This document shows positions 37,987-41,700 of a stretch of DNA of 64,000 nt, piece by piece (the stretch's first letter is position 1; the number at the start of each line of letters is the position of its first letter). The translations under genes and the position numbers were made by a program. The stretch lies in assembly GCA_051117555.1 (NCBI GenBank), contig JBNPEG010000002.1, positions 1 to 64,000 of the forward strand. Direction: 5' to 3'. The notes under the pieces are model-generated. The model ran no database searches, was not told where the DNA came from, and saw only the letters and a list, made by a program, of their open reading frames with translations. The DNA is from Elainellaceae cyanobacterium (GTDB taxonomy: Bacteria > Cyanobacteriota > Cyanobacteriia > CAZCXK01).

Positions 37987-38412
37987 ATGTCAAATGCCTC
38001 CGATGTCTCGCTTTCTCTAGCGCTCGAAGACCCGGAACTCGACCGCGACGAACTCGAAACACTGACCCAAAGCCTTCGTCAGCAGCTTAGCGGCATTACC
38101 GAAGATATCGAGCGCGTCCCTGCAAAACGCCTCACTCCAGATGGCGTAGTCGAGAAGGGGGAAGGGAATGAGCCGGGTCTGCTGCAAATGGAGGTTAATT
38201 TAGAAAACATCCAAAAGCTAGCAAGTTGGCTCTATCAACGCCTTGCCGGACGCTCGACCAAAGCGCGTGTAAAATACGGAGAAGGCAGCACCGCCATTGA
38301 ATTTGAATTTGAAGGCAACAGCCAAAAAGAGTTGGCTGCGACGATGCAAGACGTTACAGAGTTTGTCGAAAAGATTGCTCAAATTCAGCAGTCTCAGCAG
38401 TCTCAGCAGTAG
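37987..38412 (+). CDS. EACC1-like (effector-associated constant component) small protein
   Basis: DPELDRDELETLTQSLRQQL...KG...LASWLYQRL pattern; 9 nt upstream of a caspase gene. Confidence 0.65.
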   Translation: MSNASDVSLSLALEDPELDRDELETLTQSLRQQLSGITEDIERVPAKRLTPDGVVEKGEGNEPGLLQMEVNLENIQKLASWLYQRLAGRSTKARVKYGEGSTAIEFEFEGNSQKELAATMQDVTEFVEKIAQIQQSQQSQQ

Positions 38413-38421
38413 GTTTGGGCG

Positions 38422-40296
38422 ATGTCGGGTCAGCGAGTTGCACTGTTAGTCGGCGTCAGTGAATATGGGGAGGGCTATGATGCTCTCCCTGGCACTGTGA
38501 CTGACCTGGAACGGATGCAGCACGTGTTGAAAAATCCAGACATGGGCGGGTTTGATGTTGAGACACTACTGAATCCCAACCCTCAGCCGTTGCGAGAGGC
38601 GATCGAGCGCTTCTTTGGTGGGCGCAAAAAAGAGGATGTGCTGCTGTTTTATTTTTCGGGGCATGGTTCACTTGATAACGCCACGAGTAGTCAGCTTTAT
38701 TTATCGACTCATCAAACCCGCAAAGAGTCAAAACGACTGGTTGAATCAAGCGCAGTAGAGGCTGCATTGCTGCATCGACATCTTGTGCATAGCAAGTCGC
38801 AGAAGAAGATTGTGATTCTCGATTGCTGCTTTAGCGGGGCAGTTGCTAACTTGCTGTCAAAGGGAGATGACCCAGTTAATTTACAGCAACTCGAAGCTCA
38901 GGGCACCGTGCTATTAGCCTCGTGCAATGCCTTTGAGGTGTCCTATCAAACCAAGGGAGCCGCTGCCGAGGTAGATATTGCCCAATCGCTCTACACGCGC
39001 TATCTGGTGGAAGGCATCGAAACCGGAGCCGCACGACAGGGTAAACATGAATGGATTTTTACGCAAGATTTGCATGAGTATGCCAAACGTCGCTTTCAAA
39101 CTGAGCTAGCTGCCGCCACCGAACCGCAGATTATTGTCTTTGAGAAGGAAGGCTACCGCATCCCGATTGCTAGAGCACCCAAGGGTGACCCCAAGGTGGA
39201 ATATCGGCAGATTGTGGCAGAGGTGCTGAAGGAAAATGATGGGGAGATTAACAACCTCAATCGCGTTCGTCTTGATATCGAGCGCGAAGCACTAGAACTC
39301 TCTCTTGAAGATGCACAGCAGATTATAGTAGAGCAGCAGAAGCCCTATGAAATCCGCAGACAGAAGCGAGCACGTTATGCTGAAGCTTTTAAAGCAGCAT
39401 TGACTCAAGGATATCCGCTCACTAAAAATTCCCGGCGAACGCTGAAGCTAATTCAACTAAGGTTGAGTCTACGCGACGAAGATATTAGTTCAATTGAGCA
39501 TCAGCTAGCTCAAAATATTAAGTCGGCCAGTACAAAAGTACAAACTGCACCCAAACCTACACCGCCTCCTACGCCAGATACTTCTAAAGTGCCTGGAACC
39601 ATCAATCCACTATCGGCGCGAACCGTCGCGCCGACTCCAGCAACACAGGCAACCAGACATATACCTCAAACCCGCTCTCAAAGAAGGAGTTCTGAACAAC
39701 CGGGCAATCCTTCTCCAACATCCTTATCCCGACGACAAGTTCTAATATTGCTGGGTTTTGGCGGGGTGGGACTGCTTGGCACAATTGGCATCAGTCAATT
39801 ATCTAACGAGAATTTGCCATCACTTGCTGTAGATTACTCAAAACTGGAAGAATTCCTTCAAGCTCAAAACTGGAAAGAAGCAGACCAGGAAACTCTAAAC
39901 GTAATGCTCAAAGTCGCAAATCGAGAAGAAGAAGGCTGGCTAGACTCTGAGAGCTTGGAAAACTTCCCTTGTGACACTTTGCAGAGGATTGACCAACTGT
40001 GGGTAAATGCAAGCGACGGCAAGTTTGGCTTTAGTGTGCAAAAGCAAATCTGGCAAGACGTTGGCAGTCCGACAGTATACAATGATGCCTGGGAAGAGTT
40101 TGGCGATCGCGTGGGCTGGCGAGTGAATGGAAGATGGATTGATTATCCTGATAACGTAACTTTTGACACATCAGCTCCTGGAGGACACCTCCCTATGGAT
40201 CTCTTTTTGGGGTGCGGGTCCGGGGGGGTGCGGTCGGGTGCTGGTGGCCCGTGGCTCTCTTCTCTCGCGTCCAGATTTGTAAAGTGTAAGCTGTAG
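38422..40296 (+). CDS. Caspase-like (C14) protease - helical linker - TM - GUN4 domain fusion
   Basis: VALLVGVSEY, FYFSGHG and ILDCCFSG catalytic dyad; TM LILLGFGGVGLLGTIGI; GUN4 motifs DYSKLEEFLQAQNWKEADQET, FPCDTLQRIDQLWVNASDGKFGFSVQKQIW, FGDRVGWR, GHLP. Confidence 0.9.
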   Translation: MSGQRVALLVGVSEYGEGYDALPGTVTDLERMQHVLKNPDMGGFDVETLLNPNPQPLREAIERFFGGRKKEDVLLFYFSGHGSLDNATSSQLYLSTHQTRKESKRLVESSAVEAALLHRHLVHSKSQKKIVILDCCFSGAVANLLSKGDDPVNLQQLEAQGTVLLASCNAFEVSYQTKGAAAEVDIAQSLYTRYLVEGIETGAARQGKHEWIFTQDLHEYAKRRFQTELAAATEPQIIVFEKEGYRIPIARAPKGDPKVEYRQIVAEVLKENDGEINNLNRVRLDIEREALELSLEDAQQIIVEQQKPYEIRRQKRARYAEAFKAALTQGYPLTKNSRRTLKLIQLRLSLRDEDISSIEHQLAQNIKSASTKVQTAPKPTPPPTPDTSKVPGTINPLSARTVAPTPATQATRHIPQTRSQRRSSEQPGNPSPTSLSRRQVLILLGFGGVGLLGTIGISQLSNENLPSLAVDYSKLEEFLQAQNWKEADQETLNVMLKVANREEEGWLDSESLENFPCDTLQRIDQLWVNASDGKFGFSVQKQIWQDVGSPTVYNDAWEEFGDRVGWRVNGRWIDYPDNVTFDTSAPGGHLPMDLFLGCGSGGVRSGAGGPWLSSLASRFVKCKL

Positions 40297-40334
40297 AGCT
40301 TTCAGATTTTCCAAAAGTTTTGTTTCAAAGCTCT
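40295..40334. other. Inverted repeat between the convergent GUN4 and HUH genes
   Basis: AGAGCTTT (40295-40302) / AAAGCTCT (40327-40334), extendable with mismatches. Confidence 0.6.
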
Positions 40335-40338
40335 CACC

Positions 40339-41145
40339 CTACGAAGAATCAGCATTCTGGCATTCCGATACCTGGCACCGATCGCGTTTCGGTATCTGAG
40401 CAATTGCGCACTCCGGGTTGTAGCTATTCGCTCTTAAAAACTTCTCAGTGATTGCATGGGCTTCATCCATCTGAGCGTCCCACTGCTCCCAGAGATCCAT
40501 TTGCCCTGGACTCGTTTTCTTAGACTTCTTCTTAATCTTCAATCCCGCTAGCAGTTTGCTCCCCCAATGGCTTTTGCGTTCTGGCTTCGGCTGCGGTCGA
40601 TATTTTTTGCAAAACTTGCGATACGCTGCCGCACAGATCTCTAGCGTCTTCCCCAACATCAAAAACGCCGGATGCCATTGAGTAATTCCATCATTCGTTA
40701 GACGATCATACGTCCCGTAATTGCTGAAATCATAAAACCACCCCTGCTGCATATTCGCCGCTTTGGGATTGCCGTGAATATAGCGCAATGTGTTTAATGC
40801 TCGGCGTTTGTCAGTATTGGGAAAGCCTGTGCTGTGATAGCGCTTTTCCCAAAAGTGCCCCGTGCGATTCATCATCCGGTTGAAACACATAGCGGTAAAC
40901 CAATTCAGCCAATGCATGATTTTAGGCAAATCGTCTGGTTCTTTCGGTTCCAGCAAATAATGCACGTGATTGCTCATGATGCAGAGGGCATAGATTTTGA
41001 AGCCAAATTTATCCCGACAGTTTTGAAGTGCCATTAAAAACAATTCGCGACATTCAAACCGAGTCAAGCGAAATTCTCGATTGTTGCAGCGGGTCGTGAT
41101 GTGATAACAATATCCAGGATTTAGTTTTCGTGGTTTTCGCGCCAT
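40339..41145 (-). CDS. HUH/Y1 tyrosine transposase-like protein (RAYT-related), 268 aa
   Basis: MARKPR start, YHITTRCNNR, MSNHVHYLL (HUH), TGHFWEKRY, RYIHGNP (catalytic Tyr). True ATG probably 41145. Confidence 0.88.
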   Translation of the reverse strand: MARKPRKLNPGYCYHITTRCNNREFRLTRFECRELFLMALQNCRDKFGFKIYALCIMSNHVHYLLEPKEPDDLPKIMHWLNWFTAMCFNRMMNRTGHFWEKRYHSTGFPNTDKRRALNTLRYIHGNPKAANMQQGWFYDFSNYGTYDRLTNDGITQWHPAFLMLGKTLEICAAAYRKFCKKYRPQPKPERKSHWGSKLLAGLKIKKKSKKTSPGQMDLWEQWDAQMDEAHAITEKFLRANSYNPECAIAQIPKRDRCQVSECQNADSS

Positions 41146-41280
41146 ATAACTTAGCAGATCGTAGGATAGGCAAAGCGCAGCGTGCCCATCGTCTAATAAA
41201 ATCCAACTCACTAAACGCGATCGCCCTGTCATTTTGGATTCTAGATTTTGGATTTTTGATTGGGGGCGATTTATCATCGG

Positions 41281-41700
41281 TATTTATCTCCGGATGAATT
41301 TATTATCACGCCCGATCAATTCATGGGATTTTGATATTGAACAATGGTGTCGGAGGGGCGGGTTTTGATTGTCGGAGGGGTGGGTTTTGATTGTCGGAGG
41401 GGCGGGTTTTGATTGTCGGAGGGGCGGGTTTTGATTGTCGGAGGGGCGGGTTTTGATAGCACCGTATCGAAACTTGCTACCAATGTATTGTCTAAACCCG
41501 CCCCTCCGACATTACCAACGTGTTGTCTAAACCCGCCCCTCCGACATTACCAACGCGTTGTCTAAACCCGCCCCTACCCCGCGTCCACGGCACATCATGA
41601 TATTCCCAAAATCATTCGCGGATTCAAACCATTGTCTACCCGACCAATAAACCCAATGCGCCGAACACCTGGAATACCCGTTTGGCAACATAATTTTTAA
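41281..41700 (+). pseudogene. Decayed RAYT transposase fragment interrupted by REP arrays
   Basis: Translates as PDEFIITPDQ / (frameshift) HGILILN before the repeats and IPKIIRGFKPLSTRPINPMRRTPGIPVWQHNF* after them, resembling RAYT DEFVIMPNHxHGI and EIIRGFK..S.RRIN..R.TPG.PVWQRNY. Confidence 0.7.
41349..41577. repeat. REP-like arrays: five 22-nt units and three inverted 35-nt units
   Basis: (GTCGGAGGGGCGGGTTTTGATT)x5 from 41349; TCTAAACCCGCCCCT units at 41491, 41526 and 41561. Confidence 0.9.

Follow-up and report, generated by a model that had tools for sequence, protein, structure and literature searches.

The caspase-GUN4 gene and its convergent Y1 partner

Within the 64,000-nucleotide stretch of DNA that we analyzed (the window), a gene for a caspase-GUN4 protein runs toward a RAYT-like Y1 gene on the opposite strand, and a G/T-rich tract, a conserved DNA block, and a conserved spacer lie where the two genes converge. 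The features are as follows.

38422..40296, + strand: caspase (Peptidase_C14, EACC1-associated type)-linker-GUN4 gene, 624 aa, from the ORF and profile matches
39826..40194, + strand: GUN4 core up to the GHLP codons; the profile match ends at position 124 of 141
40195..40256, + strand: hypervariable G/T-rich tract, 62 nt (A2 C12 G31 T17), encoding the loop MDLFLGCGSGGVRSGAGGPW; borders from the family alignment
40200..40272, + strand: A-free run spanning most of the hypervariable tract and the pyrimidine start of the conserved block
40257..40296, + strand: conserved DNA block CTCTTCTCTCGC-N4-AGA(C/T)TTGTAAA.. with stops in three frames (TAA 40280, TAA 40287, TAG 40294), read here as SSLASRFVKCKL and a stop
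40295..40334, no strand assigned: inverted repeat with an 8-bp outer stem, local and weak
40297..40377, no strand assigned: conserved spacer ending in the near-invariant motif TACCTGGCAC (40368-40377) and forming, with the block, a module of constant length
40339..41145, - strand: RAYT-like Y1 HUH gene, 268 aa, from Met45 of the longest ORF (40339-41277)

The caspase-GUN4 protein matched PF00656 at residues 5-224 and PF05419 at residues 469-592 (Pfam), with the GUN4 match at 151.8 bits against a cut-off of 29.2. A match to NCBIfam caspase_w_EACC1 (NF047832) at 151.5 bits (cut-off, 140) identified the caspase as the EACC1-associated type, and the 141-aa ORF directly upstream (37987-38412), which occupies the candidate position for EACC1, had no Pfam or NCBIfam matches. 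At the 3' end of the gene, the GHLP codons (40183-40194) are followed by the loop MDLFLGCGSGGVRSGAGGPWL, then SSLASRFVKCKL, and then TAG at 40294-40296. The modeled GUN4 domain aligned to structure 4XKB (Z 18.8, rmsd 2.1 A over 142 residues), and the loop encoded by the tract was disordered in the predicted model of the protein (pLDDT <50). We take the loop after GHLP to correspond to the Synechocystis GUN4 loop that participates in porphyrin binding. A close orthologue of the whole gene (C48) was not found in 40 related genomes, in which the best match was 79% over the 3' part.

The preliminary description had reported a convergent, intact Y1 gene extending to 41145, and our analysis bore this out: we assigned the gene to 40339-41145 because homologues begin at Met45 of the longest ORF, and its product carries the Y1_Tnp domain of IS200/IS605 (PF01797, 62.3 bits; cut-off, 23). 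Against NCBIfam REP_Tyr_transpos (NF047646), the protein scored 70.1 bits, under the cut-off of 80. The HUH histidines H60 and H62 and the catalytic-position Tyr122 were invariant across 20 homologues (63-91% identity), and the top fold match of the model was 4ER8, a RAYT bound to a REP hairpin (E 3.5e-6, rmsd 2.7 A). A PDB sequence search with Y1 alone returned none, and a profile search gave a chance match only. Three intact Y1 copies were present in the genome, with proteins 87-89% identical, and these copies occupy matching positions in a related genome. The Y1 gene is strongly conserved and under strong constraint. Conservation around it is confined to one side of the gene, stopping at the start codon with none upstream. 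We rejected the tandem and inverted repeats at 41340-41580 as a genome-wide REP element, as their 16-mer occurred in 2 contigs only. No polymerase genes lie at the locus.

A hypervariable tract bordered by a three-frame block

On the + strand, the 73 nt at 40200-40272 lack A (G31 T22 C20), exactly where the preliminary description had placed an A-free run; its other direct observations were likewise found in position. The second-longest A-free run of the 64-kb window was 36 nt, about half as long, and base composition predicted approximately 4e-6 A-free runs of 73 nt for the window. In the 6.06-Mb genome (assembly 100% complete, 256 contigs), the run ranked third among 16 A-free runs of at least 45 nt, both longer runs being C/T-rich intergenic tandem repeats. 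A 63-nt T-free run in C152 proved to be the same tail feature in a paralogue, seen from the opposite strand. The remaining long A-free or T-free runs of the genome were rejected as instances of this feature, as they represent C/T-rich tandem repeats or membrane-helix codons.

Three other loci of this genome (C145, C152, and C187) keep the flanks and differ in the tract, with all block frames used; C145 and C152 have an intact convergent Y1 gene, and C187 has a Y1 remnant. Alignment of the interval from GHLP to SSLAS in relatives, an approach suggested in the preliminary description, revealed the tail to be a localized hypervariable segment, with a tract of 20-110 nt between the GHLP codons and the conserved block that was unalignable among paralogues and relatives with conserved flanks. 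Among the locus pairs with flanks 90-98% identical over 200 nt, 48 of 48 had unalignable tracts of different length, with no intermediates observed; these pairs comprise only 6 independent groups and may include some paralogues with homogenized flanks. The tracts of L247 and L278 (30 versus 102 nt) and of L253 and L285 (50 versus 69 nt) differ between sharp borders, and the flanks of both pairs are approximately 96% alike by eye for more than 1 kb on either side, including non-GUN4 sequence. Identical tracts were found in 7 locus pairs with identical flanks and in one pair with 98% identical flanks and thus gave no sign of within-population variation. Three soil-metagenome runs from one study, kept as contigs, had word shares of 0.27, 0.09, and 0.00; their pieces at the locus were short and of low depth, none crossed the tract, and at the loose ends ahead of 40251-40256 stood different G/T-rich sequences, which could not be distinguished from those of relatives or paralogues.

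Across 109 loci, tract composition was A.14, C.10, G.42, and T.35 and was alike at codon positions 1, 2, and 3, indicating a DNA-level property. Four-fold sites in the tract (A.11, C.075, G.50, T.32) differed from those in the GUN4 body (A.26, C.32, G.23, T.19). Absence of A, noted for this tail in the preliminary description, is not a hallmark of the family: the tract is G/T-rich, and C-free tracts (20/189) were more common than A-free tracts (5/189). G runs such as G7 and G8 were common. We observed 165 off-frame stops against 200 expected, with 73 of the 109 tracts containing some, and 36 of the 109 loci had tracts open in all frames compared to 24 expected. The effect of selection for three-frame openness was modest, and we rejected such selection as the only reason for the loss of A. 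We also rejected exchange of tracts from a shared pool, which was not seen in 16-mer sharing, as 16-mers were common almost only to loci with the same flanks. Border sequences were sometimes duplicated within tracts. Fold-back copying of the GHLP flank was rejected since GGAGGTG was not enriched (9 occurrences versus 5.5 +/- 2.3 expected), as was genome GC bias behind A-type versus C-type minor bases (Spearman 0.12, p 0.40).

The block pattern was present in 151 of 401 Cyanobacteriia genomes. The four copies in this genome all lie inside GUN4 gene ends, where the block is also read as ..FSRIQTCKV and a stop (C145 and C187) or ..LFSHPDL and a stop (C152). Among 124 block loci, a GUN4 ORF entered the block in 118, and block frame use, which equals tract length modulo 3, was 37:32:40 in 109 loci, all three frames giving complete proteins, with three endings that recur. 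The staggered stops and the reading in three frames together mean that any tract length yields a complete protein. The end motif TACCTGGCAC followed in 77 of the 124 loci, with a module length of 130 nt in 54 and 131 nt in 15 of these 77. This motif was conserved irrespective of its coverage by the Y1 frame and was retained in 53/67 loci of Y1-positive genomes versus 23/55 of others. A metagenome scan with a lineage-specific block pattern gave zero matches, and a broader pattern found 121 loci.

The inverted repeat at 40295-40334 noted in the preliminary description exists, but the hairpin proposed from it is neither significant nor conserved. Folded as DNA, it reached -4.7 kcal/mol (z -1.13), and 27 of 200 shuffles folded equally well, which is not above chance. 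Across the family, RNAalifold found 0 pairs in 67 sequences, 54.5% of cells paired versus 53.1% in shuffles, and no Rfam family came near its gathering score at the tail region (best match, 24 bits versus 48.8). We read the locus as a copy of a cassette, widespread in cyanobacteria, through which the final loop of a GUN4-type sensor domain would be varied, and we consider it very probable that this hypervariable three-frame cassette is real. We found no description of the cassette in print.

Y1 association and the origin of new tracts

The proposal in the preliminary description that this HUH subfamily sits tail to tail with GUN4 genes was upheld at a frequency far above chance. A convergent GUN4 ORF ended beside Y1 in 50 of 59 loci found via the Y1 protein, all 37 partner ORFs scanned of these 50 ended in GUN4, and the genome-level association of the Y1 subfamily with GUN4 tails had an odds ratio of 8.5. 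Nodosilinea nodulosa PCC 7104 and strains of Anabaena and Microcoleus were among the named genomes with Y1 loci. The N-termini of the 37 partners were NACHT (21), Peptidase_C14 (8), TIR (3), KAP (2), CHAT-STAND (2), and AAA_35 (1), with GUN4 at the C-terminal "sensor" position in the NACHT, caspase, and TIR proteins.

Y1 was absent within 1.3 kb of 65 of the 124 block loci, and 8 more were cut by contig ends. Tracts without an adjacent Y1 were equally G/T-rich (median 0.77 versus 0.79 for others, p 0.18) and used all three frames. Very pure tracts were weakly more common in Y1-positive genomes (22/61 versus 9/48, p 0.056), and six replaced pairs comprise solely loci without a detected adjacent Y1. 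At E<=1e-30, 85 of the 151 block-positive genomes had no Y1 of this subfamily, a "Y1-free" label that is unsafe because PF01797 genes were present in 5 of 5 such genomes checked; in one of them (G340), the PF01797 gene lies on the convergent strand approximately 1.35 kb from the block. For the earlier proposal that the HUH protein rewrites the tail, the link between HUH genes and GUN4 tails stood, whereas causation did not follow from it, given the many tails without a nearby Y1. That Y1 drives tract variation is plausible to us, at somewhat less than an even chance.

Our best explanation, which we hold tentatively and with a little under even confidence, is that the cassette varies the GUN4 sensor loop with Y1 as the likeliest starter. 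New tract sequence would arise in the DNA itself, at a fixed junction, through G/T-biased synthesis that is either untemplated or slipped, and reverse transcriptase and a template would play no part. The likeliest candidate to start this process is the convergent RAYT-like Y1 enzyme, whose gene is the sole enzyme gene found conserved beside the site. Working either in cis or in trans, Y1 would introduce a nick beside the tract, in the module in its single-stranded form, and would reseal it once the 3' end had been altered; after Y1 loss, tracts would persist and decay. To our knowledge, no described HUH enzyme causes untemplated insertion, and neither RNAalifold on the 67 sequences nor the shuffle comparison found a conserved hairpin for Y1 recognition. 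In its most specific form, a domesticated RAYT-like HUH enzyme would make junctional diversity in an immune-type receptor of bacteria by nicking single-stranded DNA at a conserved signal adjacent to the last GUN4 loop. Untemplated G/T-rich DNA of random length would be added to the free 3' end before the enzyme resealed the strand, with the three-frame block keeping the products functional; we regard this version as rather less likely than not.

An ordinary low-complexity Gly-rich linker lacking A by chance could be written, as Gly, Val, Trp, Cys, Ser, Ala, Pro, Arg, and Leu all have codons without A; the minute number of such runs predicted for the window and the recurrence of the feature in paralogues and 109 measured relatives make this very improbable. 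The analogy to diversity-generating retroelements (DGRs) drawn in the preliminary description also failed, even though the DGR RT and Avd genes that it envisaged are present: in this genome, C116 and C8 each carry a complete cassette (target, Avd, and RT), and C222 carries a third RT as a fragment. Each cassette has its own 131-nt TR/VR pair in an FGE-sulfatase target, with TR/VR mismatches at TR adenines in 19/20, 19/21, and 13/14 cases. In a blastn search of the whole assembly at word size 7, the tail matched only GUN4 paralogue flanks, and no template differing from it at A positions was found. Template-guided mutagenic homing by DGRs does not give variable length in three frames. Rather than a fixed-length VR in a C-type-lectin or Ig-like fold, the tract lies in a GUN4 fold and spans 20-110 nt in three frames, so that a remote target of the canonical DGRs of this genome is scarcely conceivable.

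Possible, although on the doubtful side, is that Y1 is a bystander, site specific or domesticated, that homes to or is kept beside the module. Host replication or repair errors at G-run-rich DNA prone to R loops or G-quadruplexes would then vary the tract, and selection would keep hydrophobic, Gly-rich loops open in any frame. The equally G/T-rich tails without an adjacent Y1, the many block-positive genomes without this subfamily, the frequent G7 and G8 runs, and the deficit of off-frame stops and excess of tracts open in all frames fit this view, as does the genetic code, in which G/T-only codons specify solely G, V, W, C, L, and F in any frame. Slippage, however, should keep tracts alignable, which none of the 48 pairs bore out, selection on residues of the current frame leaves the equal bias at four-fold sites unexplained, two-thirds of tracts (73/109) still contain off-frame stops, and neither the frequent Y1-GUN4 adjacency nor the strong conservation of Y1 is accounted for. 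We consider improbable the further reading that gene conversion among GUN4-Y1 paralogues homogenized the flanks around an old, weakly constrained, diverged linker, with no special process involved. Several loci per genome do have mosaic identity: C152 and C187 are near-identical downstream and in part of GUN4 and not elsewhere, identity between L124 and L125 starts abruptly within GUN4, and 3 metagenome loci share one identical tract of ordinary composition between flanks 68-73% identical. Conversion would nonetheless need the same two endpoints in 6 independent groups and would explain neither why the G/T composition is strand specific at all codon positions nor why the three frames, each served by the block, are used evenly, and it fits poorly with the long similarity of L247/L278 and L253/L285 into non-GUN4 sequence.

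Significance and likeness to known systems

Few mechanisms of targeted protein diversification in bacteria are known to us (DGRs, invertible shufflons, gene conversion, and repeat slippage), and a G/T-rich tail beside a tamed transposase gene may be an undescribed way to vary a sensor. Here, NLR-like, caspase, and TIR proteins have a sensor loop that is exchanged as a whole within fixed borders, the block pattern that marks the cassette occurs in more than one-third of the sampled cyanobacterial genomes, the coding design tolerates any tract length, and a conserved, transposase-derived enzyme is often attached. The role of RAYT-like genes has long been unclear. If Y1 is causal, the cassette would represent a diversity generator of a new class, and such genes would gain a previously unrecognized function. 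Even if Y1 is not causal, the three-frame terminal block achieves frameshift tolerance in an unusual way, and the published view of GUN4 as a plain tetrapyrrole sensor would need revisiting because the most variable part of GUN4 coincides with what we take to be the ligand loop.

That view comes from work on bacterial NACHT/NLR-related and EACC1-caspase conflict proteins with a C-terminal GUN4, whose architectures are the same as those of the loci described here and whose GUN4 is treated as a tetrapyrrole sensor (Kaur et al. 2020, PMC7159879; Kibby et al. 2022 preprint, 10.1101/2022.07.19.500537); the excerpts of these two papers available to us contain no reference to hypervariability of the tail, to a block read in three frames, or to a Y1 partner. 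DGRs, as described in PMC7517822 and PMC7159879, likewise have a short hypervariable segment in the 3'-terminal part of the sequence for a C-terminal ligand-binding domain of conflict or signaling proteins, with conserved DNA flanking the variable segment and a composition that avoids stops, and cyanobacterial DGR targets combine kinase, caspase, or NACHT N-termini with FGE-sulfatase/C-type-lectin variable domains. In contrast, the tail locus has a GUN4 domain instead of a C-type lectin and lacks a template repeat, RT, and Avd, and its whole tract is replaced with a length that varies in three frames, whereas DGRs recode adenine-templated positions.

The Y1 protein shares the Y1 HUH fold and intact HUH and Tyr residues with RAYTs of REP/REPIN systems (E. 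coli TnpA-REP, 4ER8; Bertels et al. 2017, PMC5581495), and its gene likewise resembles a conserved gene of the host, linked to one short conserved element in the DNA, rather than a multiplying IS. It differs from RAYTs in its subthreshold NCBIfam score and in being present as three intact copies rather than one. The linked element also departs from REP, as its approximately 4 copies lie in GUN4 gene ends, on one side of the gene only, with no conserved palindrome or hairpin and zero conservation upstream of Y1. IS200/IS605 elements (TnpA Y1 of IS608, ISDra2, and IS200) have the same catalytic domain, and TTAC/ATAC inside the end motif presumably resembles the IS608 target. Unlike in these elements, no second conserved end lies upstream of Y1, and the Y1 copies are diverged paralogues at matching loci of a related genome, not recent identical insertions.

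Phase-variable contingency loci with homopolymers or simple repeats likewise have coding G runs, lengths that differ among relatives, and frame shifts. Here, however, a frameshift leaves the gene on, with each frame ending in a GUN4-like terminal peptide, and tracts are replaced, not merely resized. In V(D)J recombination, the transposase-derived RAG nuclease acts together with untemplated N nucleotides in CDR3. If Y1 is causal, the likeness, hypothetical as it is, would lie in a domesticated transposase whose conserved signal adjoins a G-rich junction that varies in length, is made without a template, and falls within the binding loop of an immune-type receptor. The junctional scheme, if true, would give prokaryotes an equivalent of the N-region diversity of CDR3, with another transposase class and no reverse transcriptase. 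The equally hypothetical differences would be an HUH enzyme acting on single strands, the joining of no gene segments, and variation that is germ line and slow.

Adenine-free run at the end of a caspase-GUN4 gene

The preliminary description had reported an A-free stretch in a GUN4 gene facing an HUH gene, and both features are present. Positions 40200-40272 form an A-free run on the + strand (G31 T22 C20) in the last loop of a 624-aa gene; the next longest A-free run within the window is 36 nt, and the window's base composition predicts ~4e-6 runs this long. Genome-wide (6.06 Mb), it ranks third in length among 16 A-free runs of at least 45 nt, the two longer ones being C/T-rich intergenic tandem repeats. 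The convergent gene was confirmed as Y1_Tnp (hereafter Y1) and was given the coordinates below because its homologues start at Met45 of the ORF.

38422-40296, caspase-GUN4 gene, Peptidase_C14 at residues 5-224 and GUN4 at residues 469-592
40339-41145, Y1_Tnp gene, convergent with the caspase-GUN4 gene, start set from homologues

The GUN4 profile match ends at position 124 of 141, exactly at GHLP, and the caspase is typed "EACC1-associated" by NCBIfam. A 141-aa ORF at 37987-38412 stops 10 nt ahead of this gene; although no Pfam or NCBIfam model matched it, its product may be a divergent EACC1 partner, since the adjoining caspase is so typed. Directly upstream of Y1, 41340-41580 holds a 22-nt unit in five direct copies followed by a related 31-nt unit in three inverted copies. 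Across the whole genome, the core 16-mer of these repeats is confined to 2 contigs, and Rfam returned only sub-threshold "miRNA precursor" matches, i.e., a long hairpin. An element of ~35 nt at 41231-41266 (TTTGGATT-type repeats) recurs with 88-97% identity at many sites across many related genomes.

We also searched the genome for the remote reverse transcriptase (RT) and template that could make the GUN4 tail a diversity-generating retroelement (DGR) target, as had been proposed. One RT fragment was found, along with two complete DGR cassettes that both comprise an FGE-sulfatase target, Avd, and RT:

Contig C116, 42528-46166, DGR cassette with FGE-sulfatase target, Avd, RT, and template repeat (TR)
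Contig C8, 4414-8049, DGR cassette with two FGE-sulfatase targets, Avd, RT, and TR

Each complete cassette owns a 131-nt TR/VR pair, with mismatches falling at template adenines in 19/20, 19/21, and 13/14 cases. When 40101-40340 was searched against the full assembly with sensitive blastn, no template-like copy was found and only GUN4 paralogues matched. Since both DGRs have their own TR/VR pairs and the assembly holds no template for the tail, the GUN4 tail is very unlikely to be a DGR target.

A hypervariable tract and a three-frame block

The genome contains 8 GUN4 matches and 5 Y1 matches. Three GUN4 genes, on the window's own contig (C48) and on contigs C145 and C152, are each convergent on an intact Y1, and a fourth, on C187, is accompanied by a Y1 3' remnant. 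In the paralogue DNA alignment, conserved GHLP codons are followed by 45-63 nt that cannot be aligned (the tract; 40195-40256 in the window), then by a highly conserved block (CTCTTCTCTCGC-N4-AGACTTGTAAAGTGTAA..; 40257-40296), and then by a spacer and the Y1 3' end. The reading frame of the block varies by copy, ending in FSRIQTCKV-stop (C145 and C187), SSLASRFVKCKL-stop (C48), or LFSHPDL-stop (C152), with the three stops at 40280, 40287, and 40294 in the window. These endings resemble those of block-free GUN4 domains, SLLSHPAWG in the canonical GUN4 (C61) and FFLGRLLTCDL (C138). The GUN4 model (mean pLDDT 80.3) aligns to porphyrin-bound Synechocystis GUN4 (4XKB; Z 18.8, 142 residues) through to the chain's last residue. 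Within it, the tract-encoded loop at residues 597-607 has pLDDT <50, and the frame-specific terminal peptide is modeled as a confident helix (residues 610-621) matching the last GUN4 helix.

A Y1 protein search of one-genome-per-species contigs gave 59 loci, nearly all titled cyanobacteria (two carried other titles). The proposed tail-to-tail arrangement held in 50/59, where a convergent GUN4 ORF ends just past the Y1 gene, and 5 of the 9 loci without a partner have <360 nt of DNA downstream. GUN4 was C-terminal in all 37 of the 50 partner ORFs scanned with Pfam, behind NACHT (21, one also with TIR), Peptidase_C14 (8), TIR (3), KAP NTPase (2), CHAT plus STAND (2), or AAA_35 (1). In a search that did not rely on Y1, the block pattern, with 1 mismatch allowed, occurred in 151/401 sampled Cyanobacteriia genomes, and a reversed control rarely matched. 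The ORF entering the block encodes a GUN4 domain in 118/124 block loci (120 fetched from places listed by the pattern search plus 4 of our own). The Y1-found and block-found samples overlap, because some places are identical, and relatives within them are not independent. The L057 protein has two GUN4 stretches in tandem, and on the L219 contig two block matches are separated by 432 nt; the latter suggests tandem GUN4 domains, each with its own terminal block, and therefore that the block can also be gene-internal.

Tract length could be measured at 109 loci and ranges over 20-110 nt; the composition is A.135, C.10, G.42, and T.345. In the Y1-ascertained set, composition is similar at codon positions 1, 2, and 3, and four-fold degenerate sites are equally skewed (A.11, C.075, G.50, T.32, vs A.26, C.32, G.23, T.19 in the GUN4 body); the G/T bias thus lies in the DNA itself rather than in the amino acids that the current frame encodes. 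Tract lengths modulo 3 are distributed 37:32:40 (chi-square p 0.64; 109 loci) and 12:12:11 in the Y1-found set. Absence of A, which had been taken as a sign of a DGR-like tail, is not the rule: only 5 of 189 distinct tracts lack A, and 20 lack C. The minor bases of G/T-rich tracts tend to be almost all A or almost all C (16 extreme cases vs 2.5 expected among the 189), and flank GC content did not predict which. We looked for a repeat unit or positional gradient in the tracts and saw none. The two boundary sequences recur within tracts more often than chance predicts (7-8 observed vs 0.3-0.4 expected). At L021 (= L107), L049 (= L161), and L065 (= L214), the right-hand block, or the left boundary coding for GHLP, is present once more inside the tract in direct orientation, and these duplications may be footprints of the tract-renewing process.

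Tract turnover between relatives

We compared tracts between every two loci that are at least 90% identical over the 200 nt before GHLP. The expected tail variability was borne out: tracts were unalignable, and usually of different length, in 30/30 pairs at 90-95% flank identity and 18/18 at 95-98%, although these 48/48 replaced pairs represent only 6 independent groups. Tracts were identical in the one pair at 98% and in all seven at 100%, where one strain may have been sampled twice. No pair with at least 90% flank identity had intermediate tract similarity. In L247/L278 (30 vs 102 nt) and L253/L285 (50 vs 69 nt), flanks are ~96% alike by eye for >1 kb on each side, and likeness is lost exactly past the GHLP codons and regained ~8 nt ahead of TCTCGC; L124/L125 and L181/L183 have the same sharp break and resumption. 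The C152 locus and its counterpart in a related genome (L018) are 86% identical across 3.57 kb, with tracts of 52 and 51 nt and differing frames. Together, these comparisons show a localized, G/T-rich tract of variable length with sharp boundaries and a terminal block used in three frames. Tract comparison across loci did not support a shared pool as the source. Three metagenome loci (L219, L252, and L270) share the same 60-nt tract of ordinary base composition, with 200-nt upstream flanks only 68-73% identical overall, and look like a mosaic counter to the general pattern.

Y1 as a partner of the GUN4 tail

Sampled genomes with both Y1 and block numbered 66, with Y1 only 21, with block only 85, and with neither 229 (odds ratio 8.5, counted over relatives that are not independent). 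At the 124 block loci, Y1 was intact in 32, partial in 19, undetected in 65, and cut by contig ends in 8. Y1 is thus a non-random yet non-obligatory partner of the GUN4 tail. The module, running from the block to the near-invariant TACCTGGCAC (40368-40377 in the window), is of constant length (130 or 131 nt in 69/77), is conserved with or without cover by the Y1 frame, and is kept in 53/67 loci of Y1-positive genomes vs 23/55 elsewhere. The inverted repeat suspected of forming a hairpin does exist at 40295-40334, but it is weak (-4.7 kcal/mol as DNA, z -1.13; 27/200 shuffles fold as well). RNAalifold, run on the window together with 66 of the 77 modules (67 sequences), gave 0 consensus base pairs, the window hairpin forced onto their alignment paired in 54.5% of cells vs 53.1% in shuffles, and Rfam had no match near threshold.

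We infer that tract renewal does not proceed by point mutation but through synthesis or repair of DNA at a fixed junction. Our candidate for starting this process is Y1, a single-strand-specific nick-and-rejoin enzyme, whose gene is the sole enzyme gene found conserved beside the site. The G-rich coding strand would be exposed more readily as single-stranded DNA during transcription. One main rival holds that Y1 is a bystander and that host-driven instability plus selection changes the tract. Tract G+T content is no different by Y1 (median 0.79 vs 0.77, p 0.18), and six replaced pairs all come from loci without detected Y1; very pure tracts are only weakly commoner in Y1-positive genomes (22/61 vs 9/48, p 0.056). 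PF01797 genes are present in 5/5 "Y1-free" genomes checked, in one case on the convergent strand at a distance of 1.35 kb from the block, and Y1 may act on the tract in trans. The other main rival is concerted evolution of flanks around an old linker. Some of the replaced pairs may be paralogues with homogenized flanks.

We ruled out Y1 as a two-ended insertion sequence (IS), because the family comparison found no conserved sequence upstream of Y1. A sister Y1 family, ~45% identical to the window's protein, is found in G087, G196, G351, G305, and other small genomes of family f2, where copy numbers reach 6 or more in a single genome; it behaves like an IS, because it is multicopy in genomes without the block pattern.

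According to excerpts of published work, GUN4 is predicted to sense tetrapyrroles in NACHT, caspase, and TIR proteins (PMC7159879, 10.1101/2022.07.19.500537), and Group 4 RAYTs are common in cyanobacteria. The full-text search listings and the passages covered in these sources and in PMC5581495, PMC7517822, and PMC8195603 made no mention of Y1-GUN4 pairing, of a three-frame block, or of hypervariability in the GUN4 tail. Across orders, identity of the Y1 protein is 63-91%, and its HUH histidines and Tyr122 do not vary. Its model, of moderate confidence (mean pLDDT 61), has the E. coli RAYT-REP complex (4ER8) as its closest fold match, with the IS200, ISDra2, and IS608 transposases ranking behind.
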